A stretch of DNA of 64,000 nt from Candidatus Woesebacteria bacterium (GCA_035389185.1 DAOORK010000001.1:829881-893880); one strand, 5' to 3'. Shown: positions 922 to 63,651, numbered from the stretch's first letter. Notes: generated by a model not told the origin, from the letters alone. Translations and numbers: made by a program.

Positions 922-968
922 AGTTTTCTCCTTTAAGGTGCGATTTGTGGCTATTATACCCCAAAAAG

Positions 969-995
969 CAAAAAACCGCCCTGGATGGGGCGGTT
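969..995 (-). terminator. Rho-independent terminator (CCGCCC-TGGATG-GGGCGG plus T-tract on the minus strand); identical copy at 2603..2628
   Basis: Perfect 6-bp GC stem followed by TTTTTT on the minus strand, between the stop of gene 1003..1917 and the promoter of gene 109..921. Confidence 0.6.
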
Positions 996-1002
996 GAAGT
1001 AT

Positions 1003-1917
1003 TTAGAATGGATGACTTTGGAGATCCCTTTCCTTGAGGGTAAAAAGACAGTTGTTGGGGACGTCGATCGAATGATAGTTTTCTTTGATAGTTTTGACCA
1101 AGGAAATGACAATGTTGGAAAACATATCTTCGGCAACAATGGTAAGGCCAAAACAAGTGAATCTATCGTCGTTGGTTTCGAAAATCATGGCGACAGGTTT
1201 GTCGTTGTCTTTGGTACTGACACGAATGAAATGATGATGGTCATTTACTTTGACGTCGAGTTTCCACTTGGGGCAGATGGTTACTGTGAGAAGATAGGCG
1301 ATTCTTTCGAGATAGGATTTAATCTCCGAGGAGATTTTGGTGATGATGTTTTTCTCGATAAGGGTGATGATTTGCCTTTTGGCGAACTTGATGAAATCAT
1401 ACAGCTCAATATTGTTGAGCAAATCACTCTCGTTTATTAGCATGTCGTACCAATCTTTGAGAGTACCGATAGAGACAAGTACGTCAAGTGATTGACTATC
1501 AAGATTACCGTTGTACGGATGCGATCTTAGTACCGCGATATAGAACTTTTCTTGGAAAGTGACGGCTTTTTTGAATGCCCGTTCATATAGCTGAAATCTC
1601 TTGGTAAGATCATATATATGTGGGGCAAGAACGAGACATTCATCAATAGAGCTGGCAATTCTGAACATTTTACTGCAGACACCTTTGCCGATATTATCTT
1701 TTTTGTTGAGCTCTTCAAGCTGGGTTTTTAGCTCAAGAAACTTGGCCGAGAAGATAGGGGTTCTGGGTTCGACTTTTTTGATGTTACTGAGTGTAAGAAG
1801 CTGATTTATCAACTCTTTATATTCCGGTGAGATTCCGACATGGCGATTAGAAATACCCATGTCCTGACATACGGCTTCGATAATTTCAGCATTAAGATCC
1901 TGAATCTTGATTTTCAA
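1003..1917 (-). CDS. Hypothetical protein, paralog B of the IGTLEDW family (TTG start)
   Basis: 304-aa ORF with the IGTLKDWYDML motif and an N-terminal C..M/L..I..SP.Y block aligned to paralogs A and C. Its C-terminal domain aligns with paralog A. The RBS is AAAGGAGA 5 nt before TTG, and the upstream cassette is TGGTACAAT-N13-ACCTTAAAG. Confidence 0.75.
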   Translation of the reverse strand: MKIKIQDLNAEIIEAVCQDMGISNRHVGISPEYKELINQLLTLSNIKKVEPRTPIFSAKFLELKTQLEELNKKDNIGKGVCSKMFRIASSIDECLVLAPHIYDLTKRFQLYERAFKKAVTFQEKFYIAVLRSHPYNGNLDSQSLDVLVSIGTLKDWYDMLINESDLLNNIELYDFIKFAKRQIITLIEKNIITKISSEIKSYLERIAYLLTVTICPKWKLDVKVNDHHHFIRVSTKDNDKPVAMIFETNDDRFTCFGLTIVAEDMFSNIVISLVKTIKENYHSIDVPNNCLFTLKERDLQSHPF

Positions 1918-1972
1918 ATTGGTCTCCTTTGAACTTTAAGGTGCGTTTGGGGGATATTGTACCACTTAGGCA

Positions 1973-1998
1973 TAAAAAACCCTCCGAGTTGGAGGGTT
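1973..1998 (-). terminator. Rho-independent terminator of CDS 2004..2540
   Basis: CCCTCC-GAGTT-GGAGGG hairpin followed by TTTTTTAT on the minus strand. Confidence 0.55.
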
Positions 1999-2003
1999 TG
2001 AGT

Positions 2004-2540
2004 TTATTGAACGGATTTGGCTGACTTTTTGATTTCTTCGGCGATGAGACGAGTAATTTGTTCCAAGGCAAGATTGATCATTTCCTTGTCATTTAATTCG
2101 TCAAAATAGATATTGAGCCAGTTTTCCAAGGTACCGATAGCGATCATTTTGTTTTTGATGGTGGTTAACAAAATCTGTTTTTGGACGTTTTCGGAGCGAT
2201 GATTGGTGGCGTAATAATTGATACGTTCGAGCTTAAGAAATGAATCAGCACATTCTACAGCCTTGTTGAAGATTTCTGGAACTTTATCCTGAATGGAAGA
2301 TGGAGAAAGATAACAGAATGTGACGAGAAACTCCCAGTCGTAATAATTGGTGGCTGATTGGTACAGCAGTAGAAGGAGGGGGGAAGTATTCGTACCTTTT
2401 TCTTCATTATCAATGATTTCTTGAAATTTGGGTGAAAAACGACTAGTTTGGGAAGCAGCAATTTTAAGCTTATGGCAGACTTCGTTGATAAGTCTGTCAT
2501 TGTAGCGACAAAGAAGACGAACACGATCGTATTTGTCCAT
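2004..2540 (-). CDS. Hypothetical protein, paralog C of the IGTLEDW family; truncated, lacks the C-terminal domain
   Basis: The start is moved to the ATG at 2540 (MDKYDRVRLLCRYNDRLINEVCHKLKIAASQ...SPKF) with the RBS AAAGGAGTCATT upstream. The N-terminus aligns with paralog A, and the protein ends just after the IGTLENWLNIYFD motif. Confidence 0.7.
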   Translation of the reverse strand: MDKYDRVRLLCRYNDRLINEVCHKLKIAASQTSRFSPKFQEIIDNEEKGTNTSPLLLLLYQSATNYYDWEFLVTFCYLSPSSIQDKVPEIFNKAVECADSFLKLERINYYATNHRSENVQKQILLTTIKNKMIAIGTLENWLNIYFDELNDKEMINLALEQITRLIAEEIKKSAKSVQ

Positions 2541-2602
2541 AATGACTCCTTTGGAGAGAATTAAAGTACAGGAGGGATTATACCCTATATTCATTAAAAT
2601 GC

Positions 2603-2628
2603 AAAAAACCGCCCTGGATGGGGCGGTT
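2603..2628 (-). terminator. Rho-independent terminator of CDS 2636..2953
   Basis: Same CCGCCC-TGGATG-GGGCGG hairpin as 969..995, followed by a T-tract on the minus strand. Confidence 0.55.
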
Positions 2629-2635
2629 GGGTTGA

Positions 2636-2953
2636 TTATGAGAGATAAACAGAAAGGTCAGTTTCTCGATTAAGATAATATTCAAGGAGATGTTTATAAA
2701 TATCACATCCTTGTGTTCGATTATATCCTTCGTCGTAGCTTACGAGGAGACATTGGTTTGCATCGTCTACTGTAACTGAAGCAAACGGTTCTGTTGAATC
2801 CAAAACAGCAATACGAATGGTGATGACAAGCCTGTTATCGACAAATTCTTTGGTGACGACCCAGTTTCGGTCGGCCCTTTTAAGGATGTCGATAATTTTG
2901 ATCTGATCGAGATTTGGTTCTGACCGAGTGTTGGTTGGCTTTTGACTTTCCAT
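2636..2953 (-). CDS. Small hypothetical protein (106 aa), co-transcribed downstream of CDS 2964..3566
   Basis: The internal ATG at 2953 is preferred because AAGGAG lies 6 nt upstream. It sits 10 nt after the stop of the upstream gene. No recognisable motif. Confidence 0.6.
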   Translation of the reverse strand: MESQKPTNTRSEPNLDQIKIIDILKRADRNWVVTKEFVDNRLVITIRIAVLDSTEPFASVTVDDANQCLLVSYDEGYNRTQGCDIYKHLLEYYLNRETDLSVYLS

Positions 2954-2963
2954 ATCAAGCTCC

Positions 2964-3566
2964 TTATTCGTAGAAGGGGAAAGCTTTGGGGCAAGTTTCA
3001 CAGCAAAGTGGGCACTCGGTGAGAGTGATACAGCATTTTTGGAACTGCTTCACGGATTGAGTGATCTTTTTTAGCCGATCGATGACTGTGTTCGCGTAGG
3101 GCGATGAAACGGTTGGCGCAAAAACAGTGATTCTTGCTGGCTCAGTGCGAATAAGACAGGTGAACTTTGGTTTGCCGGGAGGCGGTGTTTCGATAAGGAC
3201 TAGCCGGAGACGCCCTTGGCAGGTTGTCTGATTTACAATACCAACCACCCATTCTTGAGGTAGATGATCAGAAAGAGAAGCTCTGAGCTTTGTAAGACTA
3301 CAAGTTTCCAGAGTGTGTCTGATAATGCTCCCGATCCAGTTCTTAGTCTTTTTGGGAACATAATAGCGATAAAAAGCATCTACTTTTGTATCGGATCGGA
3401 TAAGCAGATGGGCGATCTCGGCAAAGAAAAGACCTCGGCGATAGATTCTGATTGAGCCATCGTAGTCGACGTAGAGCTTGGGTGCGAACTTGGAAAAGCG
3501 TAAAGCTAACTCATCGCAAAGAATCTCGTCTATTCGGCGATTGGCAGGAAAAGGTGTTTGAATCAC
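2964..3566 (-). CDS. Hypothetical Cys-rich protein with a C-terminal CC-x5-C-x2-CC-x2-C cluster (possible zinc ribbon); GTG start
   Basis: 200-aa ORF. The RBS AAAAGGAGG precedes GTG, and the upstream cassette is AGGGTATAAT-N13-ACCTTAAAAGGAGG, the same as on the paralog array. Confidence 0.7.
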   Translation of the reverse strand: MIQTPFPANRRIDEILCDELALRFSKFAPKLYVDYDGSIRIYRRGLFFAEIAHLLIRSDTKVDAFYRYYVPKKTKNWIGSIIRHTLETCSLTKLRASLSDHLPQEWVVGIVNQTTCQGRLRLVLIETPPPGKPKFTCLIRTEPARITVFAPTVSSPYANTVIDRLKKITQSVKQFQKCCITLTECPLCCETCPKAFPFYE

Positions 3567-3628
3567 AGGAAACCTCCTTTTAAGGTGCGTTTTGGAGATA
3601 TTATACCCTATAAAGCAAGAGATAAAGA

Positions 3629-7128: not shown

Positions 7129-8013
7129 ATGAATAAAAAGTTGTTTCTGATTGTTGCTGTTCTAGTCGTCCTGACATTGGCTTTGTCTACCTGTGAGCTT
7201 CCTGATTCCAACCAGCCCCAAGGAATAACCTTGGAAACCCTTCTTGGTGAAGTAATCGGTTATTCTCACCCCGTCAAATTTTCTATGGTGAGCTATAACG
7301 GCGATAACCACACAATGGAGGTACTGGTTGATGGAAACCCATACACTTTGGTCGAGGGCAAGAACGAAGGTGTTTGGGATACTGATCAAGTGGATTTTGC
7401 TTGGGATGATTATGGCTTGACGAAATTTGGTCAGCTGCGTGATCTTTTTTCCGAGGAAACTGTCCGATCGATAGAGGAAAAGGGGAACGACTTCTGGGCA
7501 TTTTCTGATGGTGGTGCTTATAACCGGACGGTGGTTTTGGTGCCAGTTGATGTCATGCCTAAGATGATCTCGGATGTCTCAACATGGGACATGACCGAAG
7601 CTGTGATATCTGTTTGGAGCGTCTCGCCTTTTCCAGCTAGTCGGATATACGAAAACGTGACAACCAATGAAGTAGTTTTTGGTGACTATCTTTATGTTAT
7701 GACCTACGACGATCAACACAATGCGCGACCACTTCTTTCTAATGGTTTTCTCTGGGGATATGTCCATGTTGAGAAAGAAGACTCTCACGGGGATTACACA
7801 GTATATCTTAGTCAGTCAGAACCAGATTTCTCCAAGTATCCGGAAGCTGTTGAGCTGATGCAGCTGGCTTACCCGGAAAGTGCAAATCCGATTACGGTTG
7901 ATTCGTATTCTGGTCTGGGTCAGGTGTGTGATGCCTTGAGTTCAGCAATATATTACGATCGAGCCAACCGAGAAGAAGTGAAACAAGTTTGCGGAGTGTA
8001 TTACATTCCGTAG
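7129..8013 (+). CDS. Lipoprotein, paralog 1 of a four-gene tandem family
   Basis: Signal peptide plus lipobox (LALSTC). AGGAG lies 6 nt before the ATG at 7129. The motifs MPKMISDVSTWDMT, ENVTTNEVVF and a C-terminal QVCGVYYIP are shared with paralog 2. Confidence 0.8.
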   Translation: MNKKLFLIVAVLVVLTLALSTCELPDSNQPQGITLETLLGEVIGYSHPVKFSMVSYNGDNHTMEVLVDGNPYTLVEGKNEGVWDTDQVDFAWDDYGLTKFGQLRDLFSEETVRSIEEKGNDFWAFSDGGAYNRTVVLVPVDVMPKMISDVSTWDMTEAVISVWSVSPFPASRIYENVTTNEVVFGDYLYVMTYDDQHNARPLLSNGFLWGYVHVEKEDSHGDYTVYLSQSEPDFSKYPEAVELMQLAYPESANPITVDSYSGLGQVCDALSSAIYYDRANREEVKQVCGVYYIP

Positions 8014-8015
8014 AA

Positions 8016-8044
8016 GTGAAGTACGTCCCCCGTGTAAAAGCGGG
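8016..8044 (+). terminator. Rho-independent terminator (CCCCCG-TGTAAAAG-CGGGGG plus T-tract)
   Basis: GC stem followed by TTTTTTG. Members of the same hairpin family follow each lipoprotein gene and occur again at 48978. Confidence 0.6.
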
Positions 8045-8066
8045 GGATTTTTTGTATCTAGTTATG

Positions 8067-8095
8067 GCCTATATGATTGACTTTTGGGGTTATTG
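8067..8095 (+). promoter_or_regulatory. Promoter of lipoprotein paralog 2 (TTGACT-17-TAGAAT)
   Basis: Same cassette as 7054..7082. Confidence 0.5.
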
Positions 8096-8148
8096 GGAGT
8101 AGAATACAGCTATTCGTAAATTGAAAATTTAATCTATTGGAGGAGCTA

Positions 8149-9042
8149 ATGAAACGTGTATGGAATTTAGTTTTCGTTGTTTTGGTGGTTGCCTTGACTC
8201 TAACCGCCTGTACGCCAATGACCAATCGTACACAAAAGAATCTACACTCTAAAGGACAAACACTTCAGGAGTATTCCGAGGCTGTTGGTTTTCACTTTGC
8301 CTCGATGCAGGTGCTGTCTTTTGATGAGAGTGAACAAACTCTGCAGACGGTAATTGATGGTCAGCCGGTTACTTTGAGGTCGTATGGTACCCAGGATTGC
8401 GAATACTACTATCCTTGTAATAATCTTGAGGTTGTTTATATTGGCGATAATCACTTTGTTGAACATATGGGTATGATTGATTTTTATAAAGAGTCCTTGT
8501 TCACTGACGAATTCGTCATTGAAACCAAAGGAGTGGACTGGGTGGTGATGGATTTAGGAGATTATCCTGTCTATGGTCTGGTTATGGTGCCAGCTGATAT
8601 CATGCCCGAGGTGGTTGATGATATTTCGGAATGGAATGACACCAGTACAACATTGTATATCTGGCGATATTCCATGGGTCCGGATAGCATAATTCAAAAT
8701 ATGACAACGGGAGAAATTTTTTACGGAGAAGTGTCTCTGTCAACTTTTGACGATCTCGGGCGTATGGATGTGATCCATCCTGGAACTACCGCGTGGGGTT
8801 ATCTCCATGTTGAAACATATGATGGAGCGAATGGTGAGCCGGAGACACAGTTGTATCTGAGTCAATCGGCTCCTGATCTGCAGACAATGCAAAAGGCTGT
8901 AGATTATTACGTTTCAGAGTATGGATCAACTGCAAACTATGGCCCCGGCTTTGTTTGCTTCTTGTTGCAGTACTATGCCAGGTCTGACTACGACACCGCA
9001 GTTGCCAAACAGTATTGTGGTGTGTATTACGTTGGAAAATAA
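8149..9042 (+). CDS. Lipoprotein, paralog 2
   Basis: GGAGG lies 5 nt before the ATG at 8149, and there is a lipobox LTAC. The motifs MPEVVDDISEWNDT, QNMTTGEIFYG, WGYLHVE and a C-terminal QYCGVYYVGK are conserved. Confidence 0.8.
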   Translation: MKRVWNLVFVVLVVALTLTACTPMTNRTQKNLHSKGQTLQEYSEAVGFHFASMQVLSFDESEQTLQTVIDGQPVTLRSYGTQDCEYYYPCNNLEVVYIGDNHFVEHMGMIDFYKESLFTDEFVIETKGVDWVVMDLGDYPVYGLVMVPADIMPEVVDDISEWNDTSTTLYIWRYSMGPDSIIQNMTTGEIFYGEVSLSTFDDLGRMDVIHPGTTAWGYLHVETYDGANGEPETQLYLSQSAPDLQTMQKAVDYYVSEYGSTANYGPGFVCFLLQYYARSDYDTAVAKQYCGVYYVGK

Positions 9043-9047
9043 TAAAT

Positions 9048-9075
9048 ATCCCCTGGGAAACCGGGGGATTTTTTG
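9048..9075 (+). terminator. Rho-independent terminator (CCCCTGGGAAACCGGGGG plus T-tract)
   Basis: Hairpin plus TTTTTTG. Confidence 0.6.
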
Positions 9076-9107
9076 TATCTAGTTATGTCCTATATGTTTG
9101 ACTTTTG

Positions 9108-9126
9108 GGACTACTTGGAGTAGAAT
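9108..9126 (+). promoter_or_regulatory. Promoter of lipoprotein paralog 3 (TTGACT ... TAGAAT)
   Basis: TTGACTTTTGGGACTACTTGGAGTAGAAT. Confidence 0.45.
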
Positions 9127-9168
9127 ACGGCTATTCGCAAGTTGAAAATTTAATCTATTGGAGGAAAA

Positions 9169-9849
9169 GTGAAGAAAATTTTTGTTGTCGTATTTGCTTT
9201 GATTGTAGCCGTGATGGTCATGACCGCTTGTACCAACAAGACTTCTCAGGAAAACGTCGTTGATATTCCTCAAAAAAATATCATTAGTATGTTTTCAGCT
9301 CAAGCCGTTCTGTATTATCCTGAAGGACGCAACGCCTGGTTCATGGAGTATAACAAGGATTATTTCGAAGTTATAGTTGACGGGGAGCTTATTCACCTGA
9401 TCGATCCTGAAGAAAATTCGTATGTGATCTTGGGTAAGAAAGCGCCTGATGGAATGATTCAGTTTGATTCTCCGATACCACTGCTAGATTTTAGAGATGT
9501 GACTGTCAGAGATGGTATATCTGGGCATCGAGTGTTTTATAGCGGATATGATACCCTGCACGAAGAGAATATGACTTTGGGTATGGTGATAATTGATGGT
9601 GAAGACATGCCAGATTTCGTTTCTGCTCGTTTGTGGGACGCTACTGTAACCAAACTTTGTGTCTGGCAGTACCCTCAAGAATCCTTGGTTATACAGAATC
9701 TTGTTACCGATGAAGTCACCCACGTCTATGATGAAGTGGATATACTAGCCGGTGATGGCACAGTACTTGATCGAGTTGAACAAGGGGAATGTGTCTCAGG
9801 GCTTGTGATTGCTGAAGATGATCGTAAGATCAGTATTGTTGTAGAATAA
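9169..9849 (+). CDS. Lipoprotein, paralog 3 (GTG start)
   Basis: GGAGG RBS and a lipobox MTAC. The motifs MPDFVSARLWDATVTKLCVW and QNLVTDEVT align with paralogs 1, 2 and 4. Confidence 0.75.
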   Translation: MKKIFVVVFALIVAVMVMTACTNKTSQENVVDIPQKNIISMFSAQAVLYYPEGRNAWFMEYNKDYFEVIVDGELIHLIDPEENSYVILGKKAPDGMIQFDSPIPLLDFRDVTVRDGISGHRVFYSGYDTLHEENMTLGMVIIDGEDMPDFVSARLWDATVTKLCVWQYPQESLVIQNLVTDEVTHVYDEVDILAGDGTVLDRVEQGECVSGLVIAEDDRKISIVVE

Positions 9850-9863
9850 CCTACAAGTTTGAA

Positions 9864-9890
9864 TCCCTCGGGAAACCGGGGGATTTTTTG
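9864..9890 (+). terminator. Rho-independent terminator (CCCTCGGGAAACCGGGGGA plus T-tract)
   Basis: Hairpin plus TTTTTTG. Confidence 0.6.
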
Positions 9891-9912
9891 TATCTAGTTA
9901 TGGCCTATATGA

Positions 9913-9941
9913 TTGACTTTTGGGGTGAAATCAGGTATACT
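9913..9941 (+). promoter_or_regulatory. Promoter of lipoprotein paralog 4 (TTGACT-17-TATACT)
   Basis: TTGACT at 9913 and TATACT at 9936. Confidence 0.45.
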
Positions 9942-9989
9942 ATGGCTGTTCGCAGAAATTTAAAATTCTATTGATTCAAGGAGAAAATT

Positions 9990-39866: not shown

Positions 39867-40322
39867 TTATAGATCGGGTAGAAGGATAGTAAGAGCGATT
39901 TGAATGGCTTGGTCAAGGTCACTAACGACGAATCCGGCAGCTCCTCGTAGCATCTTGTGAAAGTGAATATTGTTGTCTTCCATAACGATGATAGTTGGTT
40001 TACGCAGGATATCTGCCCAGGCAACTTCCATAACGGTACCAATGGAGACTTCTTTGGCGCCAAGAAAATTGACGAAGATCAGATCCGAGCGGGAAACGTC
40101 GTTACGATCTCGGCAGTCAATGCCTTGCGGGGTACTGAGCGGATGATAATCGTAGTTGCCGCCAATATTGGTTTCATCGACAAGATACTTTTTACCCCTC
40201 AAGGGATTTAAGCCAATGACATTTGGGGGAAATTTACCGGTAACGTACTCACGCCAGCCAAGACAGTCCTTATATGAGAGTCCAGTAATGGGACCAGCCA
40301 GGTACACAAGATAATCATTCAC
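39867..40322 (-). CDS. Nucleoside 2-deoxyribosyltransferase-like protein
   Basis: N-terminal VYLAGPITG motif and a later SIGTVMEVAWA...KPTIIV block, characteristic of the Nuc_deoxyrib_tr fold. The start is GTG, preceded by GAGGAGG. Upstream is the leader cassette TATTAT-N15-ACTTTAACAGAGGAGG. Confidence 0.65.
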   Translation of the reverse strand: MNDYLVYLAGPITGLSYKDCLGWREYVTGKFPPNVIGLNPLRGKKYLVDETNIGGNYDYHPLSTPQGIDCRDRNDVSRSDLIFVNFLGAKEVSIGTVMEVAWADILRKPTIIVMEDNNIHFHKMLRGAAGFVVSDLDQAIQIALTILLPDL

Positions 40323-40396
40323 TTTTAACCTCCTCTGTTAAAGTTCAAACTTGGAGTTGATAATAACATAGGAATAGGGTATTTACGAAATTGTTG

Positions 40397-45396: not shown

Positions 45397-45425
45397 AAAA
45401 CCCGGCTTGCGGCCGGGTGATGGGT
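45397..45425. terminator. Bidirectional terminator hairpin CCCGGC-TTGC-GGCCGGG; identical copy at 45912..45940
   Basis: AAAAACCCGGCTTGCGGCCGGGTG is flanked by A- and T-tracts. It serves convergent dprA (+) and 45425..45868 (-). Confidence 0.55.
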
Positions 45426-45868
45426 TATTCTTCGATGAACTTGATGCTTTTGATGACGATGATATTGGTGTAGAGAATCCTTTTATTGGTATCGAGGAAC
45501 TGAATTTCGATAATGTCTAGAGGTTTCAGGGTGCAGATTTTGCTGGGAGGATACTCATAACGGAAGCTGACGCCGTTGATAAAGACACGAAGGATATCGA
45601 TGGGACGACCATCAAGAAAAGTGAAGAATTCGGTGCTGTCTTCTGTTCGAACATCCAGTTTGACAAAATGGGCGATATTTTTTATGACGACGCGATCGTT
45701 GACAATGTATTCCGAGTCTCCCTTGAGGCTGATGGAAGAAACATCAAAACGATGATTTTTATCATAAGTGGTAGGAAGGGTGGCTCCTTTATGGTCAGGA
45801 TCTCCTTCTTTGGTGATGTTGGAGTAGTTTACGAAATTGACACATGCAATTGTTTTATCCATATCCAT
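45425..45868 (-). CDS. Hypothetical protein
   Basis: 147 aa. Its upstream leader is TATAAT-N12-ACCTTAAACC...GAAAGG, almost identical to the cassettes at 922-960, 1925-1960 and 3567-3600. Confidence 0.6.
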   Translation of the reverse strand: MDMDKTIACVNFVNYSNITKEGDPDHKGATLPTTYDKNHRFDVSSISLKGDSEYIVNDRVVIKNIAHFVKLDVRTEDSTEFFTFLDGRPIDILRVFINGVSFRYEYPPSKICTLKPLDIIEIQFLDTNKRILYTNIIVIKSIKFIEE

Positions 45869-45911
45869 CCTTTCTCGTGGTTTAAGGTGCTTTGGGGGGA
45901 ATTATATCAAA

Positions 45912-45943: not shown

Positions 45944-46402
45944 CTATTTGAGTTTACTGGTTAGTTCGTTCAGAACAGAGAGAATTCCACCATTGTCAGT
46001 ATTCGTGTCAGCTTGGTAATCGAGATGTTTGGTAATGGCTTTAATGAGCCGTTTTTCTTCTTTATCATCGACCATATTTACTAATGACGTAATGGCGAGA
46101 TAATAAGAATGCTCATCAAGTGCCATGTCGGTACTGATGTCATCAGTCGCAATTCTAAAGAGAAAATCTTTGATTTGTGGCGGGATCGGTTTGACAGTGA
46201 GTTTTCCTAACAATTCGATGACGTTGTCAAAGTTTTCTTTGGACATCTCGTAAAAATCGGTATTTTCCATCACGTCTTTTAGGATATGAAGATAGTTTTC
46301 GATTTTTAATTGGTTTAGCTGTTCGGAAAAGAACTTCACTAGTTCAGGTTGGACGGTGATGGCGGTATTGGATACTGTAGTAGAGTTGTTGGCCTTTGCC
46401 AT
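45944..46402 (-). CDS. Hypothetical protein
   Basis: 152 aa. Its leader is TAGAAT-N12-TCTTTAATTTCGTTCCCAAAGGAG upstream of the ATG. Its promoter is divergent to that of comM. Confidence 0.6.
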   Translation of the reverse strand: MAKANNSTTVSNTAITVQPELVKFFSEQLNQLKIENYLHILKDVMENTDFYEMSKENFDNVIELLGKLTVKPIPPQIKDFLFRIATDDISTDMALDEHSYYLAITSLVNMVDDKEEKRLIKAITKHLDYQADTNTDNGGILSVLNELTSKLK

Positions 46403-46482
46403 TATTTCTCCTTTGGGAACGAAATTAAAGAACTTGGCTCTGTATTCTACAACACTAAAGTAAGATAGTATACTTTTTCTAT

Positions 46483-48003
46483 ATGCTTGCCTGTATAAGA
46501 AGTGCGGCCTGTGTGGGACTTCAGAGTTTCTCGGTGGATGTGGAGGTAGACGTGGCGGATAAAGGGTTTCCCGGGTTTAGTATCGTAGGTCTGCCGGACA
46601 AGGCGGTCGGCGAGGCTCGAGAAAGAGTCAGGACGGCCTTAGTGAATAGCAGTTTTGCTTTTCCGCAAAAGAAAATTACGGTTAATTTGGCGCCGGCTGA
46701 CTTACCCAAAGAGGGCTCGGCTTTTGATTTGCCGATTGCCTTGGGAATACTGTTGGCAAATGGAGATATGGAGACAAATGAAGATGGTCTATTTTTTGGG
46801 GAGTTGTCTTTAGATGGGACACTGCGTCACACCAAGGGGGCACTTCTTTTGGCTTTGTTTGCCAAAGAACAAGGAGTTGAAAAAATATTTGTACCGATTG
46901 AGTCGGCCAATGAGGCCGCGGTAGTCAACGGTGTGCAAGTGATACCGGTTCGATGTTTAAAAGATTTGGTGAGTCATTTGGCGGGAATGAAGATGATTCC
47001 ACCATTAAAAGAAATTGCAATAAAAGCCTTGGTGGAGAAGGCAGCACCAGAATTTGAGTGGTCGGAGATTGTGGGGCAGGAGACGGCCAAGAGGGCTCTA
47101 ACTATCGCCGCGGCTGGAGGACACAATATCTTGATGTCTGGTCCACCAGGATCGGGAAAGACGATGTTGTCACGAGCTTTGCCAGGAATAATGCCGGAGA
47201 TGACTGAAGAAGAAACGATGGAAGTGACAAAGATTTACTCAGCGGCAGGATTATTGGAAGCTGGAGAGGCGATTGTGAGACGTCGACCATTTCGCTCACC
47301 CCATCACTCAACCAGTTTGGCTGGGTTAATTGGGGGAGGAAGTCATCCAACACCGGGGGAAGTGAGTCTGGCCCACCTGGGAGTGCTGTTTTTGGACGAG
47401 ATGGCAGAGTTTCCGAGATTTGTGCTTGAAGGTATGAGACAGCCAATGGAGGATGGGAAGGTGGAGATTTCTCGAGCCTTGGGGAGAATAACTTATCCTG
47501 CCTCATTTCAATTGGTAGCCGCGGTGAACCCTTGTCAGTGTGGTTATTTGGGTCACCCAACTCACGAATGCAAGTGCACGGTAAGGGATATAGAGAGGTA
47601 TAAAAGACGGATAAGCGGGCCAATTTTGGATCGGATAGACTTGCATATAAATGTGCCGGCGGTAGAGATGGAGAAGATCGTTGGGGTGGTACCCAAGGGA
47701 GAAAACTCATTTGTAATAAGAGAAAGGGTAGAGAAAGCGAGAAAAATCCAGAGTGAAAGATTGTTAAAGTTTGGGATTTTTTGTAACGCTCAGATGAAAA
47801 ATAAACAAGTAAAGGAGTACTGCCGGCTTGATCCTGGAGGAGTACGGGTATTAAGGATGGCGATGGAGAAGTTTGATCTGTCTGCCAGATCGTATTTCAG
47901 AGTTTTGAAAGTGGCTCGAACGATTGCGGATTTGGAGGGTAGTAAGGATATTTTGTCGGTGCATTTGGCCGAGGCATTGCAGTACAGGGAGAGAGTATTT
48001 TGA
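46483..48003 (+). CDS. comM: YifB/ComM-family Mg-chelatase-like AAA+ ATPase (competence protein ComM)
   Basis: N-terminal Lon-like/ChlI domain (FSVDVEVDV...GFPGFSIVGLPDKAVGEARERV), Walker A SGPPGSGKTM, and a C-terminal Mg-chelatase-like helical domain. Confidence 0.85.
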   Translation: MLACIRSAACVGLQSFSVDVEVDVADKGFPGFSIVGLPDKAVGEARERVRTALVNSSFAFPQKKITVNLAPADLPKEGSAFDLPIALGILLANGDMETNEDGLFFGELSLDGTLRHTKGALLLALFAKEQGVEKIFVPIESANEAAVVNGVQVIPVRCLKDLVSHLAGMKMIPPLKEIAIKALVEKAAPEFEWSEIVGQETAKRALTIAAAGGHNILMSGPPGSGKTMLSRALPGIMPEMTEEETMEVTKIYSAAGLLEAGEAIVRRRPFRSPHHSTSLAGLIGGGSHPTPGEVSLAHLGVLFLDEMAEFPRFVLEGMRQPMEDGKVEISRALGRITYPASFQLVAAVNPCQCGYLGHPTHECKCTVRDIERYKRRISGPILDRIDLHINVPAVEMEKIVGVVPKGENSFVIRERVEKARKIQSERLLKFGIFCNAQMKNKQVKEYCRLDPGGVRVLRMAMEKFDLSARSYFRVLKVARTIADLEGSKDILSVHLAEALQYRERVF

Positions 48004-48087
48004 ATGTTGTCCTATATTGTGGTAGAATAGCGCACAAAAGAACCTTAATACTATAGATATTGGACTAAGTCCAAAGAAGGAGAATAA

Positions 48088-48969
48088 ATGTCAACTGGTT
48101 TAGGTTTGGTGACGATTCAGGGTTGTTTGAATGAGGGAGAAAAAATTGCCGGACTGAGTGCAAAAAAATGGTCGAGTGACGAGAACAGTTTGCAGTATTT
48201 TGCAGAAAAGTTTGTTCCCGATCGTTCTGCCCTTGATCTTATTGATAAGGAAAGTCTGCGCTCGTTTGCTACCTGTCTTCACCCCGAGATTATTGCCAAG
48301 ATGAAGGAATGGGAGATGCGTCTAGACCAGATTCCCGATGGCGGTTCGGCATCAATCTACATGATTTCCCAGCTCAGGGAAATGATGAAATGGATGGAAA
48401 CCGGGAAAAGAGTCGATAATCGTCGTCAGTGGCCGGAGTTTATTTTGAAGAATGTGGAGTTTCTGGGTACTGGCCAGGATCCTTTTACCGGAGTTGTGGT
48501 CAAAGTGCCGGTTGAAGGTGGTGACACAGTCTATCTTTACCGATGCCCTCAGAGCGTTGATGATGAACTTGATCTACTGCAGTTTGTTGTTGAGGGTATT
48601 GAGTCGGAGATGTTTGATATTGTGCCTCCTTTGGATTACAAAGGGGTACAGATTCCCTGTATCTATGCAGATCTCGAGTCGAAACTGGAATGGATCTTGG
48701 GTATGAAGAACGGCGATTATTTTATTTCTTACGCCCAACAGAAGATTCTTTTTGGTATGAATCAGATTGGTTTTGCGGTGCGAGAAGAAACGGCAATGGC
48801 CATGACAAGAGGCATTCACGTTGAGTCGCCGCCATACATCTTGTCACCAAATGGGGAGTCGTTTTTGTTTTGGAGACGGCGACCGGGAGTATTTAGCCCG
48901 ATCTCTATCTTCCAGTTTACTAAGGATGATTTCAAAGACCCTGGTGACTTGAACAAAATTGTTGAATAG
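48088..48969 (+). CDS. Hypothetical protein
   Basis: 293 aa with a strong RBS AAGGAG. The leader cassette is TAGAAT-N13-ACCTTAATAC. It is followed by a CCCTCGGGAAACCGGGGG terminator. Confidence 0.65.
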   Translation: MSTGLGLVTIQGCLNEGEKIAGLSAKKWSSDENSLQYFAEKFVPDRSALDLIDKESLRSFATCLHPEIIAKMKEWEMRLDQIPDGGSASIYMISQLREMMKWMETGKRVDNRRQWPEFILKNVEFLGTGQDPFTGVVVKVPVEGGDTVYLYRCPQSVDDELDLLQFVVEGIESEMFDIVPPLDYKGVQIPCIYADLESKLEWILGMKNGDYFISYAQQKILFGMNQIGFAVREETAMAMTRGIHVESPPYILSPNGESFLFWRRRPGVFSPISIFQFTKDDFKDPGDLNKIVE

Positions 48970-48977
48970 ATCTTTGC

Positions 48978-49006
48978 CCTCGGGAAACCGGGGGCTTTTT
49001 TGTGGG
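48978..49006 (+). terminator. Rho-independent terminator (CCCTCGGGAAACCGGGGGC plus T-tract)
   Basis: Same hairpin family as the lipoprotein-gene terminators. Confidence 0.55.
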
Positions 49007-49018
49007 ATACTGAAATTA

Positions 49019-59547: not shown

Positions 59548-59625
59548 TAACTACTCCTTTTTTTTATGTCAAAATTGATCTTTCTGATACAATACAGGCA
59601 AAGAACTTTAATATTAGGAGGATGA

Positions 59626-60072
59626 ATGGTAAATCGACCGTTTCAAATGGAAGACGAACTAGCAAGATTGATCTCCGGTTTGAAACCGGAGACAGAGATC
59701 ATGTCATTTGCCAGCGAAGACAAGTGGTTTCAGCAGATACTGGGAATGGCGGCGACTCAAGGTTTGCTCTCCGAGGTGGAAAAGATAACCTTTGAAGTTC
59801 AGACTCACTATGAGTTCGACAGCCTCAAAAATTTCTCCCGGGGTGGCTTTGTAGCAGTATTTCTACCACGGTTTTATATTATCCTCATTGAAGATGGGAA
59901 ACGAAATGATTTTACGGTACGCAATCCACGTTACTACAATGATTTGGTAGAAATTACCGAGAAGCCGATCGTAGAAACCGATATCCCCGACGTTGAGGAA
60001 GTGGGTGTTTGTACTCTTGATTTTTTTTGCAATACGCTTGAAAAGGGCAAGATCTGGAGACTAAGTAAATAG
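59626..60072 (+). CDS. Hypothetical protein, paralog of 60148..60606
   Basis: 148 aa. SRLISGLKP and GGFVAVFLPRFY align with SRLILGLLWP and GGWKAVFVPYIQ in the next gene. Leader TACAAT-N11-ACTTTAATATTAGGAGG. Confidence 0.6.
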   Translation: MVNRPFQMEDELARLISGLKPETEIMSFASEDKWFQQILGMAATQGLLSEVEKITFEVQTHYEFDSLKNFSRGGFVAVFLPRFYIILIEDGKRNDFTVRNPRYYNDLVEITEKPIVETDIPDVEEVGVCTLDFFCNTLEKGKIWRLSK

Positions 60073-60147
60073 TCTGTTTAGACCTCGAGGAATCGGGGTC
60101 TTTTTTGGTATACAATACTGGTTTAAGAACCTTAAAAAGGAGGAACG

Positions 60148-60606
60148 ATGAGTGAGTTAAATATGGAGATTCGTCTTTCACGACTGATTCTAGGCTTGTT
60201 GTGGCCATGTACAGTAGATAAGAAAGTTTTCAAAAATGATCAAGAGTATTCTCTACTTGCCGCAGAAGCCAAGGAAGAGAATAATGAGCCGAAGTGCGGT
60301 GCGGCCTATTTTTACCTCCGAATGGGATATTGTCTGAAAGGTTTTGAGGCTAAAAACGGTGGCTGGAAAGCGGTGTTTGTGCCATATATTCAAACCTGCA
60401 GACTGTATGACGGTTGTAAAACGGTTAACTTGGATAGTCATATCTCAGAGGACGCGGTGTCAGCACTAATACCTCTTCTTGGTATGGAAACTGAGACGTG
60501 TATGGACATTCCCAGAGTTGAACAGCTACCACTGTCACACATAGACTCCCAAGGTTATGTCATTGAGGAAGAAGAAAAATACTGGAGAATAGCTGACACA
60601 AGATAA
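60148..60606 (+). CDS. Hypothetical protein, paralog of 59626..60072
   Basis: 152 aa. Leader TACAAT-N12-ACCTTAAAAAGGAGG. A matching CCTCGAGGAATCGGGGTC(T)n terminator follows each of the two paralogs. Confidence 0.6.
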   Translation: MSELNMEIRLSRLILGLLWPCTVDKKVFKNDQEYSLLAAEAKEENNEPKCGAAYFYLRMGYCLKGFEAKNGGWKAVFVPYIQTCRLYDGCKTVNLDSHISEDAVSALIPLLGMETETCMDIPRVEQLPLSHIDSQGYVIEEEEKYWRIADTR

Positions 60607-60654: not shown

Positions 60655-60903
60655 TTAGGAGTTATTGGGGCTGGGGTTCATGCCAAGCATCCAAAGAACC
60701 TGTTCTTTTTTGTAGCGGCGGTCTCCTCGGGAATTGATGCGGATAGCCGGGAGTTTGCCGCGTTTGCCCCAGCGTTTGAGGGTAAGAGTGGAGACACGGA
60801 GGATTTCGGCGACTTCGGAGACAGTCAGAAGGTCGGGAAGATCGTTGAGATTTAATTCTCTCTTGGTTGGTTTAACGATTGGGTTTTGGTCTTGATTGTC
60901 CAT
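60655..60903 (-). CDS. Excisionase-family / MerR-like HTH DNA-binding protein (HTH_17-like)
   Basis: LLTVSEVAEILRVSTLTLKRWGKRGKLPAIRINSRGDRRYKKEQV matches the excisionase/Xis-type helix-turn-helix pattern. Confidence 0.65.
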   Translation of the reverse strand: MDNQDQNPIVKPTKRELNLNDLPDLLTVSEVAEILRVSTLTLKRWGKRGKLPAIRINSRGDRRYKKEQVLWMLGMNPSPNNS

Positions 60904-61444
60904 GTCTGATACACAAGTTAACAGATAGTTTTAGTAACGTCAAGGGGAAGTTTTGCACATCCCATTGACATTTATATCTTTGTGTGGTATATTATAAGTC
61001 TTCCCAATGGGAATGCACCTTGATCGTAATCCAAACAGTTCCCCAAATTAACCTGCGCCGGGGAGAAAGGGAATCGATGTTCACCTGACTTTAGGGATGG
61101 GGTGACGCCCCGTACACTAGTCAACTGAAAAAAATAAGTGAAGAAGATCCCTGTTTTTGGCCAACCGGAGGGCACAGATCGCCCTAAGGCCAAAAAAAAT
61201 AAAGCAGAAACCGCTTTATGGCTGGGTAAGGTATATTCCTGCCAGGCCACACACTCTAAAATAAAGGAGTTCTAAGTGCGAAGATTTCTTCTGCTTTTCC
61301 TTCGGCGCTCATTGCGCCCAGTTTAACCTTAAGTACAGCGCATACACAGAGATTACGAAAAAACAAATTGTTGCATCAGGCCCCCGAAAGGGGGCTTTCG
61401 TTTGGCAAAAAACCCACCCTTTTGGGGTGGGTTTGACGTTTGAT

Positions 61445-62263
61445 TTACATCTTTGCTGAGGGTGTAATGTCCATGACGTTTTGATAGGCTTTGTTGACGG
61501 CCTCGAAATCAAACTTTTCTTTACTGGTGGGAACATTGAGGGCTTCAGAGACTTCCTTTTTTGCAGTGTTGAAGTGCGTGAGCTTGTTGAGGGGATTTTG
61601 ACGAACAAAGTGAAGGAAGTTTCCGATAATACGATTGCCCATATCAACGTTCTCTCGAATATTTTCGTTGATGGCAAGAGCCTGTTCCGTGGCTTTCTCG
61701 ACCAACTCAATTGCTTGACGGCAGGTTTTGAGACGTTTGGTTTTCTCCCAGGGAGAGATGGTCAAGCTGAGCGGGGAGATGAACTCCAGACGTTTTTTTG
61801 CCTCGACCATTTCACGACGATATCTGTAGGGTACTTTCTCATCGATGAGCTTGATTCCATTTTTGATGAGAGAACGGAGCTCTTCTTCGGTTTTCCAGAT
61901 GACGTAGTTGGTGACGTAAGGGGAAATATCCTTCTCGGTGAAGTCCAATTTCGAATCGATCTCGATGGCGGAAGCATAAATATCCTTGGTGAGGCTCAGC
62001 CATGACTGGAAGTTGAGAAGGTCTTCGAGTGGCTTGGTGGCACAGTAGATGGCCACAAGAAGAACTTTCCCAGCTTCTTGCTCGTCATAGCCGGCATATG
62101 GCCTGGCGCTGATTTGGGTAGGCCCTTCGGATTCAAGCTTGACAACATGATCTTGGAAACGATCGTTTCTGAGAATATCATAGACTTTTTCCTCGAGCTC
62201 TCGAGGCAAAACAGTCTGCCAAATATTGCAGAAGAGTTTAACAGCGGGTTTGAAATCTGACAT
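61445..62263 (-). CDS. Hypothetical protein
   Basis: 272 aa. Upstream is AGTACGTTAAAAGGAG, a leader-motif variant. Downstream are two tandem terminator hairpins (CCCACCC..GGGTGGG plus T-tract; GCCCCC-TTTC-GGGGGC). Confidence 0.6.
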   Translation of the reverse strand: MSDFKPAVKLFCNIWQTVLPRELEEKVYDILRNDRFQDHVVKLESEGPTQISARPYAGYDEQEAGKVLLVAIYCATKPLEDLLNFQSWLSLTKDIYASAIEIDSKLDFTEKDISPYVTNYVIWKTEEELRSLIKNGIKLIDEKVPYRYRREMVEAKKRLEFISPLSLTISPWEKTKRLKTCRQAIELVEKATEQALAINENIRENVDMGNRIIGNFLHFVRQNPLNKLTHFNTAKKEVSEALNVPTSKEKFDFEAVNKAYQNVMDITPSAKM

Positions 62264-62458
62264 TTATTACTCCTTTTAACGTACTGGGTATGGTTTCCTG
62301 CCTGGTGGGCAGGTTGGACGCCTTTTCCGGCGATTGGGGGTATTGTATCCTATAACGAAAGATGTGTCAAGAAACTTGTCAACAAAAAACCCGCTCAAGC
62401 GAGCGGGTTCTTTGGTTGCGGATTCAATCCGCCTAAGGCGGATTTCGTTAAAGATAGA

Positions 62459-62836
62459 TTACTTTAACTCAACTTTGGCACCGGCCTCTTCAAGCTTAGC
62501 TTTGGCGGCTTCGGCGTCTTCTTTTTTGGCACCTTCAAGAACAGTTGCGGGAGCTTTTTCGACCAAGTTTTTGGCTTCAACCAAACCGAGGTCGGTTTTG
62601 ATCTCACGAACGGCTTTGATAACGGCGATTTTGTTAGCACCGGCTTCGGCGATAACAACGTCAAATTCGGTCTTTTCCTCTGCAGGAGCAGCGGCAGCAG
62701 CTACGGCGGCGCCAGCTACGGCGACGGGAGCAGCGGTAACACCGAATTTTTCTTCTAACGCTTTGACGAGTTCAGCAACTTCCAAAACGGAGAGTTCACT
62801 GATCTGGTCGACGAGTTTTTGAACTTTGTCGGACAT
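62459..62836 (-). CDS. rplL: 50S ribosomal protein L7/L12
   Basis: [33 protein letters not shown], an Ala-rich hinge, and a C-terminal [25 protein letters not shown]. Confidence 0.95.
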
Positions 62837-62870
62837 TTTTGTTTTTGTTATTTATAATTTACGAGACTAA

Positions 62871-63395
62871 TTAAACAGACAATTTGGTTTTTAGGGCATC
62901 CAAACCATAGACGAGATTTTGCATAGGAGCGGAAAGTTGGCGAACCAGTCCTTGAGCGGGAGCTTGTAGCTGAGCCATAAGTTTCCCAAGGAGCTCTTCG
63001 TAGGAAGGAAGTTTGGAAAGAGCAGAGATGTCGGCGATGGTGATAACTTTGTCATCCATAATACCAGTTTTGATCTTGAGCTTATCGTGATCTTCCTGGA
63101 ACTTGGTAAGGGTCTTAGCGGCGGAAACAGCATCGGCACCAAAGAGGACGGCGGTTGGGCCATTGAGAAAAGAGTCGAGAGTGTCGGCGAGTTCCTTGGA
63201 CTTGTCTTTGAGAGCGAGACGAAGAAGGTTGTTTTTGGTGACAAAGAAACTGGAGTTGGTTTTCTCGGCTTCAGCACGGAGAATATTTTGTTCCGCGACA
63301 GTTAGACCGGCGTACTCGGTGAGAATAACAGCTTTGGATTCAGCTAGAGATTTGGTGATCTCAGCCAGCTGATGGACATTTTTTTGACTAGGCAT
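62871..63395 (-). CDS. rplJ: 50S ribosomal protein L10
   Basis: The start is set to the ATG at 63395 (MPSQKNVHQLAEITKSLAESKAVILTEYAGLTVAEQNILR...). It lies immediately upstream of rplL. Confidence 0.85.
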   Translation of the reverse strand: MPSQKNVHQLAEITKSLAESKAVILTEYAGLTVAEQNILRAEAEKTNSSFFVTKNNLLRLALKDKSKELADTLDSFLNGPTAVLFGADAVSAAKTLTKFQEDHDKLKIKTGIMDDKVITIADISALSKLPSYEELLGKLMAQLQAPAQGLVRQLSAPMQNLVYGLDALKTKLSV

Positions 63396-63651
63396 GTTGT
63401 TTATTTTATTTGATTTAATTACGAAAAAGGCTCCATTCCAAGAAGAGCCAGTGAGTCGGTTCTGCAAGGGGCTTAGTGATCGCCCTTGGTCTTGGAACTA
63501 TCAGTATTATACATGAGAAGTCGGGAAGTGCAAGGACTTGATGTGAACTGAGGAAATCCATAGTTGACTTGCAAAACTGTTATAGGTTTGCTAGAATACG
63601 GCCATTAAAGGTAAAGCGAAAGCGAACCTTAATATATTATCGTTACGGAGG

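Follow-up and report, generated by a model that had tools for sequence, protein, structure and literature searches.

A clade-specific GMACYTTAA box beside the -10 box of Shine-Dalgarno leaders in a Collierbacteria-like bacterium, most likely acting on the transcript start

[quoted passage not shown] For epsilon, a model of pairing with 16S has been refuted in E. coli, according to the study of O'Connor and Dahlberg (2001) as it is cited in that paper. Regulon operators, such as LexA boxes or the RDRM/DdrO sites of Deinococcus, are likewise short conserved motifs, located at the start site of many non-homologous genes or just after it and retained in related species. The putative mobile promoters of Matus-Garcia et al. 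(2012; PMC3488235) place similar promoter sequence before non-homologous genes in one genome, and the sigma-70 promoters studied by Kuo et al. (2025; PMC12641261) show a lineage-dependent sequence preference downstream of the -10 box. For the Candidate Phyla Radiation (CPR), almost nothing is known about gene-expression signals, and our literature search found no description of the leader motif reported here, or of a comparable one.

The DNA analysed (the window, 64,000 nucleotides) belongs to an uncultured, Microgenomates/Collierbacteria-like CPR bacterium. A first-pass annotation had described a common leader, consisting of a -10 box, a short motif, an SD and a start codon, before eleven genes; all eleven cassettes could be located in the sequence at those genes and their exact coordinates checked. 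A twelfth, which that list lacked, precedes gene 2004..2540 (TATAAT-N9-ACTTTAA). The twelve cassettes are as follows.

919..958, minus strand: gene 109..921; -10 box TATAAT at 953-958, GCACCTTAA at 933-941, then A, GGAG and ATG at 921.
1915..1961, minus strand: gene 1003..1917; -10 box TACAAT at 1956-1961, GCACCTTAA at 1936-1944, SD AAAGGAG, TTG at 1917.
2538..2582, minus strand: gene 2004..2540; -10 box TATAAT at 2577-2582, N9, GTACTTTAA at 2561-2569, SD AAAGGAG, ATG at 2540.
3564..3605, minus strand: gene 2964..3566; -10 box TATAAT at 3600-3605, GCACCTTAA at 3580-3588, SD AAGGAGG, GTG at 3566.
40320..40365, minus strand: gene 39867..40322; -10 box TATTAT at 40360-40365, N15, GAACTTTAA at 40338-40346, SD GAGGAGG.
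45866..45906, minus strand: gene 45425..45868; -10 box TATAAT at 45901-45906, N12, GCACCTTAA at 45882-45890.
46400..46449, minus strand: gene 45944..46402; -10 box TAGAAT at 46444-46449, variant GTTCTTTAA at 46425-46433, SD AAAGGAG.
48023..48090, plus strand: gene 48088..48969; -10 box TAGAAT at 48023-48028, N13, GAACCTTAA at 48040-48048, a small hairpin, SD 30 nt downstream.
59588..59628, plus strand: gene 59626..60072; -10 box TACAAT at 59588-59593, N11, GAACTTTAA at 59603-59611, SD AGGAGG.
60111..60150, plus strand: gene 60148..60606; -10 box TACAAT at 60111-60116, N12, GAACCTTAA at 60127-60135, AAA, GGAGG, ATG.
62261..62347, minus strand: gene 61445..62263, an outlier; -10 box TACAAT at 62342-62347, a long leader, variant GTACGTTAA at 62276-62284 directly before AAGGAG.
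63592..63654, plus strand: gene 63652..63903; -10 box TAGAAT at 63592-63597, N28, GAACCTTAA at 63624-63632, the motif being the 3' arm of an inverted repeat, ATTAAAGGT-N14-ACCTTAAT (63604-63635).

The claim that these leaders share a recurrent, promoter-anchored element is borne out by its enrichment over shuffles, decoy motifs and upstream k-mer expectation. On both strands of the window, TANAAT-N9-15-ACYTTAA occurs 8 times, as against 0.32 ± 0.52 (maximum 2) in 200 dinucleotide-preserving shuffles. The ACYTTAA heptamer alone is not in excess in the window (22 copies, 25.9 expected), and 11 of its 22 copies lie in the intergenic DNA, which amounts to 7.5 kb or 11.7% of the window. When k-mers were counted without bias in the 70 nt upstream of 55 ORFs, the top 7-mer was ACCTTAA (7 regions versus 0.36 expected, p = 7e-8) and the top 6-mer CCTTAA, both ranking above the SD and -10 words. 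The full cassette, defined as a -10 box, N6-17, ACYTTAA, at most 35 nt, GGAG or GAGG, and a start codon, was found 10 times in 82 kb of the genome; 150 permuted motifs of the same base composition, used as decoys, gave a mean of 0.34 (maximum 6). By virtue of flanking bases that were no part of the search pattern, namely G at -2 (16 of 19 sites, and 12 of 12 in the window) and A or C at -1 (16 of 19), the motif extends to nine bases, GMACYTTAA. Counted by the reading frame of the start codon, its TAA is spread 8/5/5, with no preference that would mark it as a stop codon.

Over all sites the motif is placed 7–17 nt after the -10 box (mode 12–13; 28 nt at one site) and 1–30 nt before the SD, so its distance to the -10 box is much the tighter of the two. 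The fixed spacing from the -10 box that had been proposed is not what we find: ten window sites have intervals of N9-15, but 63652 has N28, and at 61445..62263, a weak member that also has one mismatch (ACGTTAA), the interval is about 59 nt. Where leaders are longer (48088, with 30 nt to the SD; L120 and L113 among the relatives, with 19–23 nt), the motif stays beside the promoter and not the SD. Because leaderless genes of the same genome set the transcription start 7–9 nt after the -10 box, the motif would fall in the transcripts' first 15 nt or so, and hence be transcribed. Every promoter-associated copy (12 in the window, at least 4 in its flanks and about 10 in relatives) has the same orientation relative to its gene. 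Common descent of promoter modules could partly account for this bias, since the subgroup at 921, 1917, 3566 and 45868 also shares its spacer.

The motif is specific to the clade, occurring in Collierbacteria and more weakly in other Microgenomates, and it is lacking from non-CPR controls totalling 665 kb. Strict searches for TANAAT-N9-15-ACYTTAA returned 0 matches in the ten closest genome representatives, in which no k-mer was enriched beyond -10 and SD words. A species-specific motif was overturned by metagenome relatives and orthologue alignments, where the motif is found at N7-N14 spacing. Other contigs of the species are 99.99–100% identical, and a strain at 97% identity (L173) has too few SNPs to inform on the motif. 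At orthologous promoters in other Collierbacteria the motif is kept, with proteins that are only 28–93% identical. It is present before the orthologues of 39867..40322 in L174, L176, L177, L094 and L120; the L120 homologue of 45425..45868 keeps GCACCTTAAACC at 31% protein identity; the L095 homologue of 45944..46402 has GCACCTTAA where the window has a variant; and the L093 orthologue of 48088..48969 keeps TAGAATAGC.CAC.AAAGAACGTTTAA. Between gene 59626..60072 and its L093 orthologue, 44 of 45 nt are identical over the stretch that begins with the -35 region and closes with the motif's last A, beyond which the two diverge. Indeed, in these phylogenetic footprints conservation reaches precisely to the motif's 3' end and no further; both the spacer between motif and SD and the protein diverge, and 4-nt indels shift the spacing to the -10 box between orthologues. 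As read from these alignments, the 9-nt box is evidently maintained by selection at orthologous sites. Its sole freely varying core position, C/T, varies within one orthologous series: AACCTTAA is found in L176, and AACTTTAA in L177, L094 and the window.

Several DNA-level readings have to be weighed against these data. One is that a clade-specific transcription factor, namely a repressor seated between the -10 box and about +15, binds the motif and co-regulates a set of fast-evolving accessory genes, which is possible but unlikely. Conservation at orthologous promoters of a single clade is what such an operator would show, and its position, overlapping or directly following the start site, is typical of repressors; the leader of g63652, a putative HTH gene, has two inverted copies as an autoregulated repressor would, and upstream bases complete short palindromes at 60148 (TTTAAG-AAC-CTTAAA) and 40322 (AAGTT-TG-AACTT). 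Yet the motif is asymmetric, its roughly 25 copies all point one way, and most sites lack a second half-site, an inverted pair being found at 63604-63635 only. LexA and RDRM/DdrO sites, by contrast, are palindromes that are found in both orientations and answer to a known regulator, whereas the motif here is orientation-locked and not confined to a narrow gene set. Hand curation of 82 kb gave some 30 leadered promoters with an SD, of which 14 bear the core exactly and about 6 others a variant with one mismatch in the corresponding position, which makes the motif look like a feature of leadered mRNAs in general and not like a narrow-regulon operator. Nor was a cognate factor identified: the small gene g63652 has a weak HTH match (E = 0.003, short of the Pfam cut-off), and its protein is a species-specific orphan, set against a clade-wide motif. 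Like g63652, a second candidate, the MerR/HTH_17 gene at 60655-60903, could not be linked to the motif.

On the other hand, RNA polymerase holoenzyme itself might read the motif, at about +5 to +14, as a core-promoter or initial-transcribed-sequence element that tunes escape, pausing or start choice. The anchoring to the -10 box rather than the SD, the unbroken conservation of the window-L093 pair and the lineage-specific discriminator and ITR composition documented across bacteria (PMC12641261) all suit this proposal, but we think it quite improbable, as spacings of 7–17 nt (28 once) that change by indels are hard to square with a fixed polymerase contact, and the genome's own leaderless promoters function without the motif. 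A rigid conserved initiating transcribed sequence, which had been one of the earlier suggestions, fits poorly with a spacing that indels, also between orthologues, spread over N7 to N17. The motif is also not -10-like, and so not a sigma-dependent pause element: its hexamers (CTTAAA, TTAAAG, TAAAGG and TAATAC among them) lack the A2/T6 combination at most sites, with TAATAT at 59626 and 63652 the only exceptions. Kuo et al. describe compositional biases and a 3-bp start element, whereas here one finds a discrete 9-nt word at variable spacing. The whole block from -35 to motif that is kept in the closest orthologue pair nevertheless also fits a DNA-level promoter or operator element. Very unlikely, and largely refuted by the footprints, is the proposal that the motif has no separate function and is the remnant of a promoter module copied before different genes or brought in with genes from one donor. 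Promoter reuse before non-homologous genes is documented (PMC3488235), and the four cassettes at 921, 1917, 3566 and 45868 do share 67–85% spacer identity. Mobile promoters, however, are long, highly similar stretches, and here only the -10 box and the 9-nt box are shared: flanks are at random identity (27–35%; pairwise means of 0.35 before the -10 box, 0.33 within the spacer and 0.27 past the motif), orthologous promoters whose proteins share 28–50% identity retain the motif amid scrambled adjacent bases, GC and GC3 of the tagged genes equal those of the rest of the window, counter to a foreign composition, and no link to phage contigs was found.

Taken as RNA, the motif could act by pairing, its CCUU folding onto the AAGG of the SD and masking it, or extending the pairing of SD and anti-SD with the 16S tail. 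We consider this highly improbable. CCUU:AAGG pairs do appear in some minimum-free-energy folds (1917, 45868, 60148), and the motif resembles the anti-SD (CACCU-CCUU), but the leaders are predicted to be unstructured, with fold energies no different from shuffles (z-scores -1.6 to +0.7), no consensus base pairs are predicted in six orthologous leaders, and at no fewer than four sites the SD is 1–3 nt away, too close for a hairpin. The enriched SD words AAAGGAG and AGGAGG and the SD consensus AAAGGAGG imply the usual CCUCC tail, CCUCCUUU; rRNA was absent from the roughly 180 loci examined. With the tail so deduced, ACCUUAA has the same sense as the tail rather than its complement and would not extend SD pairing, which tells against the extended 16S complementarity that had been suggested. 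Of the earlier interpretation, then, the real, promoter-anchored recurrent element stands, the 16S complementarity is not supported and the rigid initiating sequence fits poorly. An antisense small RNA was also considered and rejected: a single free-standing anti-motif exists, TTAAGGTTAAAC at 61332 (minus strand, between terminators), but its predicted folding does not surpass that of shuffles (z = -0.5), it has no Rfam match, and its CUCCUUU box is in the wrong order for colinear pairing. Rfam 15 covariance models run over the window bring only 5 tRNAs to the gathering score.

The motif most likely acts on the start of the transcript. Our tentative preference, held at a little under an even chance, is that GMACYTTAA is a single-stranded element, peculiar to the clade and close to the leader's 5' end, which works at the level of the transcript as an enhancer of translation, a standby site or a tag to which a factor binds. 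Four observations lead us to it: the copies are all oriented alike, C and U interchange at position 3 of the motif, the leaders are unstructured, and half or more of all leadered promoters have the motif. The C/T change is one that pairing to G in RNA would tolerate, and with flexible spacing on both sides a location near the 5' end and upstream of the SD fits better than a rigid RNA polymerase contact. Such a cis-element, lying in the first 15 nt or so of short, unstructured leaders, would be read as single-stranded RNA, either as a translation-initiation enhancer or ribosome standby site or as the docking site of a clade-specific RNA-binding factor; a standby site for a ribosome or RNA-binding protein, as first suggested, is thus possible. 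Either way, expression of leadered mRNAs would be boosted or co-regulated, core genes being largely leaderless or without an SD. Two features sit less well with particular versions of this transcript-level reading: in the long leaders the motif hugs the promoter, which is not what a purely SD-assisting enhancer needs, and, with its strongly conserved G at -2 and its C at +1, the motif is less A/U-rich than a classical S1-type enhancer.

The closest known sequence analogue is the T7 gene 10 enhancer. Its sequence is present at 59626, 40322 and L082 18698, and also in L093, L094, L177 and L114; at 59626 and 40322, and in L093, L094 and L177, the motif takes the form GAACTTTAA followed by 3–5 nt and GGAGG. 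Both elements are unstructured and lie upstream of the SD, and an A/U-rich element of about 9 nt (UUAACUUUA) is found in that place in the leaders, which the ACC form GCACCTTAA matches only partly. The motif-to-SD distance of 1–30 nt, a sequence-based figure, is compatible with the variable-distance action of the T7 element. The differences are that T7 has just one such site, in a phage and remote from its promoter, whereas the motif stands near the -10 box of at least a dozen cellular promoters, and that the G at -2 and the ACC form have no T7 counterpart. Should the motif be a true enhancer related in action to that of gene 10, it would be a natural cellular example of a widely used, mechanistically unresolved element. 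More generally, a discrete 9-nt element under selection offers a way into the expression or co-regulation of variable genes in such reduced genomes; it is a concrete sequence for cell-free or heterologous systems, and could improve start-site and promoter annotation in CPR metagenome-assembled genomes.

The motif marks about half of the SD-dependent transcripts, in contrast to core genes that are apparently leaderless, as many of those neighbouring the tagged genes look. One may speculate, though we think it rather unlikely, that this bacterium has two classes of mRNA, with core genes leaderless or without an SD and fast-evolving accessory or orphan genes bearing a strong SD and a clade-specific 5' tag, GMACYUUAA. 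A trans-acting factor dedicated to the tag, be it a small RNA, an RNA-binding protein or some ribosome feature found in Collierbacteria alone, would then read it, so that the variable gene pool would form a post-transcriptional regulon. Most tagged genes are accessory or orphan genes, monocistronic and dependent on an SD; 109..921 and 2004..2540 are the only paralogues among them, and several of the orphans are set between conserved core genes; g109 and g63652 have no homologues outside their own species among 5.8 billion proteins. A phage origin was rejected, as no viral relative of g48088 was found, and six viral matches to TAYAAT-N10-CGCACCTTAAA are single, context-free and due to chance. 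Searches of the tagged genes against Pfam, PHROGs and PADLOC gave a single lead as to function, a nucleoside 2-deoxyribosyltransferase-like fold for the product of 39867..40322.

Unrelated genes of the window share a promoter-leader cassette that reads, on the gene strand, as a -10 hexamer (TATAAT, TACAAT, TAGAAT or TATTAT at motif sites), a C-rich stretch ending in CAAA, the motif G-(A/C)-A-C-(C/T)-T-T-A-A, an A-rich run, a strong Shine-Dalgarno sequence (SD; AAGGAGG) and the start codon. All of the instances listed in the first-pass annotation were found, and their coordinates verified, in the window sequence. The fixed distance from the -10 box that it had also proposed holds only loosely: most sites do lie near the -10 box, but the distance ranges from 7 to 17 nt, with two outliers listed below. 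The distance from motif to SD is 1–30 nt, the orientation relative to the gene is identical in all copies, and the TAA inside the motif keeps no particular reading frame with respect to the start codon. Sites are named by one or both end coordinates of their gene; L082 and L084 are loci giving flanking sequence of the same genome, for which identical 462 kb contigs extended the window leftward by 10 kb and rightward by 8 kb, for a total of 82 kb.

Additional and atypical motif sites
Upstream of gene 2004..2540: TATAAT-N9-GTACTTTAA, absent from the first-pass list
63652: atypical, 28 nt between motif and -10 box
61445..62263: atypical, ACGTTAA with a single mismatch, some 59 nt away from the -10 box
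L082 17598: flank site, TATACT-N17-ACCTTAA
L082 18698: flank site, TACAAT-N11-ACTTTAA
Composite coordinate -6401: flank site, TATAAT-N7-ACTTTAA
L084 1732, minus strand: flank site, TATTAT-N13-ACCTTAA

The leader of orphan gene 63652, whose 83-aa product has a weak HTH match, opens with a 9-bp inverted repeat (window 63604-63635; ATTAAAGGT-N14-ACCTTAAT), the 3' arm of which is the motif. The repeat is invariant in a 97%-identical strain (L173); it may serve as a palindromic operator or fold into a 5' stem-loop.

That the motif is more frequent than in shuffled sequence is borne out once it is taken together with the -10 box: TANAAT-N9-15-ACYTTAA occurs 8 times, as against 0.32 +/- 0.52 in 200 dinucleotide-preserving shuffles. 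The heptamer ACYTTAA by itself is not over-represented (22 vs 25.9 expected), and half of its copies fall in the intergenic DNA that makes up 11.7% of the window. An unbiased k-mer test covering 70 nt ahead of each of 55 ORFs places ACCTTAA first among enriched 7-mers (7 vs 0.36, p = 7e-8) and CCTTAA first among enriched 6-mers, both outranking SD and -10 words. Full cassettes number 10 in the 82 kb, compared with a mean of 0.34 (maximum 6) for 150 decoys, these being same-base permutations of the core within an unchanged grammar (-10, N6-17, core, up to 35 nt, GGAG or GAGG, start). Because two positions that formed no part of the search are also conserved (G at -2 and A/C at -1, each in 16/19 sites), we take the element to be GMACYTTAA. 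Its instances are largely independent of one another: 109..921 and 2004..2540 are the only paralogous pair among the tagged genes, and identity around the two boxes is 27–35%, the exception to random flanks being a subgroup (921, 1917, 3566 and 45868) with a similar spacer.

Our curation of the 82 kb gives about 30 leadered promoters with an SD, 14 of which carry the exact core and about 6 more a near variant; one-mismatch variants at the equivalent place are ACTCTAA, ATCTTAA and ACCTT(G/C)AA. A longer related box, ACCTT(G/C)AAATT(G/C), stands 18–28 nt past the -10 box in three other leaders (L084 6197(+) and 8199(-), L082 10919(+)), perhaps as an insertion variant of the element.

NCBI labels the genome 'Candidatus Woesebacteria'. 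Its ComM homologue (46483..48003) is 74–85% identical to those of Collierbacteria MAGs, as opposed to 59–68% for other Microgenomates. Samples rich in this organism are JGI 3300009782 and 3300010355, and SRR4244858. A strict pattern scan gave no hit in any of the ten nearest genome representatives. In a wider metagenome set of relatives, Collierbacteria-like contigs hold 10 complete cassettes in 391 kb, and over all Collierbacteria loci 10 were counted where decoys averaged 1.1; in other Microgenomates there is a trend that does not reach significance, and the non-CPR controls (665 kb) contain no cassettes. Among candidate leadered promoters, TTAA at 11–16 nt past the -10 hexamer is enriched three-fold in Collierbacteria and two-fold in other Microgenomates, with no such enrichment in non-CPR loci.

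The most telling evidence for conservation comes from orthologous promoters. Gene 59626 and its orthologue in the relative L093 encode proteins that share about 45% identity across the 33 residues that can be compared, and 44/45 nt match from the -35 region through the last A of GAACTTTAA; past this point, the match falls to 6/16 nt. For 48088, the L093 counterpart retains the stretch from -10 box to motif and is otherwise divergent, homologues of 45425 at 31% protein identity retain GCACCTTAAACC, and at 45944 the window has GTTCTTTAA where the homologue in locus L095 has GCACCTTAA. A graded series of six promoters is available for 39867..40322 (protein identity 93, 86, 79, 48 and 46%), all retaining the -35 box, -10 box, C-rich-CAA, CG-AAC(C/T)TTAA and SD; motif position 3 alternates between C and T, and the spacers vary, including a 4-nt indel between -10 box and motif. 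The motif is absent from more distant 39867..40322 homologues in other genomic contexts. Since it is kept at orthologous promoters while spacers and proteins diverge, the motif is under selection in the Collierbacteria clade.

Many core genes of the genome, including ComEA, M16 peptidase, DprA, ComM and MreB, present a different arrangement, with a -10 hexamer ending 6–8 nt before the start codon (10, 4 and 6 cases at offsets 6, 7 and 8, a histogram peak over a background of about 2.8). Such an offset is the signature of leaderless mRNA, and so calibrates the transcription start at 7–9 nt after the -10 box. On this calibration, the motif would begin between +1 and +9 of the transcript.

Leaderless-looking genes and ribosomal loci
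4897, 35051, 43761, 44289, 53683, minus strand: -10-like hexamer 6–8 nt off the start, without SD
10796, 35311, 38361, 40548, 44551, 46483, 51717, 53763, 56236, plus strand: -10-like hexamer, without SD
L084 4440-4865, 8869-9393, 9428-9805, 605-1219: L11, L10, L7/L12 and NusG genes
Window 62459-63395: L7/L12 and L10 genes

The genes for L11, L10, L7/L12 and NusG have an A-rich stretch upstream without an SD, and strong GGAGG SDs are found mainly on accessory or orphan genes. In our view the more interesting lead is this division, with leaderless core genes on one side and, on the other, accessory genes that carry the tag and an SD.

GMACYTTAA belongs to a known class, that of shared cis-regulatory leader or promoter-proximal motifs. 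Literature searches on CPR/Patescibacteria promoters and leaders turned up no comparable motif; the nearest general work concerns how the composition of discriminator, start and ITR differs between lineages (PMC12641261) and the reuse of promoters (PMC3488235). We tentatively favor a role at the RNA level, in which the motif would act as a single-stranded element near the 5' end, as a translation enhancer or standby site or else as a factor-docking tag. This preference follows from the single orientation, the flexible spacing, the tolerance of C or U, the lack of a TAA frame relation, the commonness of the motif (half or more of all leadered promoters) and the unstructured leaders: individual leaders are predicted to lack structure (z between -1.6 and +0.7), and the orthologous leader set has zero consensus pairs. 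The nearest known analogue in sequence is the T7 gene 10 enhancer. Its Enh element stimulates translation whatever the exact spacing from the SD (PMC8748333). A purely SD-assisting role is at odds with the long leaders, which keep the motif by the promoter and not by the SD.

Pairing with the 3' tail of 16S rRNA, another proposal of the first-pass annotation, is not supported, as the motif resembles the tail rather than complementing it, the tail being deduced here from the SD consensus; for the T7 element, a proposed 16S pairing was later refuted (PMC8748333). Variable spacing and a motif that is not -10-like are hard to square with a rigid contact to the polymerase or with a sigma-dependent pause element, and a palindromic operator fits poorly with an asymmetric motif found in a single orientation. 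A DNA-binding regulator is nonetheless in play, since 63652, a small putative HTH gene, has the inverted pair in its leader and since a few short palindromes occur among the motif sites.

The tagged genes each have their own promoter, and several their own terminator as well. Above the curated cut-off, Pfam matches none except one deoxyribosyltransferase-like protein; PHROG gives no match of significant stretch, PADLOC matches none, and a search for a phage link found none. The products of the two genes checked, 109..921 and 63652, have no homologue outside the species among 5.8 billion proteins. GC content is ordinary, and several tagged genes lie amid conserved competence/core genes (DprA, ComM, YraN, MreB), a neighborhood that is syntenic in relatives without them. 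The deoxyribosyltransferase-like gene lies directly downstream of a tRNA, both here and in Collierbacteria orthologues, and window 40396-41792 holds three tRNA-Ala genes in 1.4 kb (anticodons CGC, GGC, CGC; the first on the opposite strand). On the minus strand of 109-3566 runs a series of four to five small orphan genes, four of which have a tagged promoter each and three or more of which are followed by a terminator; a 27-nt terminator, AAAAAACCGCCCTGGATGGGGCGGTTG, has exact copies at about 970-996 and 2604-2630.

Window 60856-61444 comprises 589 nt without a called gene, carrying on the minus strand two terminator-like hairpins and another terminator at 61199-61219, together with the anti-motif TTAAGGTTAAAC (about 61321-61332) and a CUCCUUU that resembles an anti-SD. 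Rfam gives no match for this stretch, and shuffled sequences fold just as well (z = -0.5). Adjoining it is a gene for a small MerR/HTH_17 (excisionase-like) DNA-binding protein (60655-60903, minus strand), a possible sign that a mobile or integrated element is present; the window showed no integrase.

The lipoprotein genes at 7129-10688, four paralogues in tandem, each carry a near-identical promoter block, TTGACTTT-N17-TAGAATAC...AATTGAAAATTTAATCTATTGGAGG, with terminator CCCCCGG..CCGGGGGATTTTTT. In these promoters, which form a second, duplication-derived family, an ATTTAAT box stands at a greater distance from the -10 box. Two giant ORFs of 1959 and 3083 aa (12574-27873) are adjoined by a pilin-like gene with an N-terminal methylation motif (11868-12545) and by a paralogous gene cluster (28484-34210). 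The competence genes ComEA, DprA, ComM and YraN lie at 35311-49378, with orphan genes interspersed.
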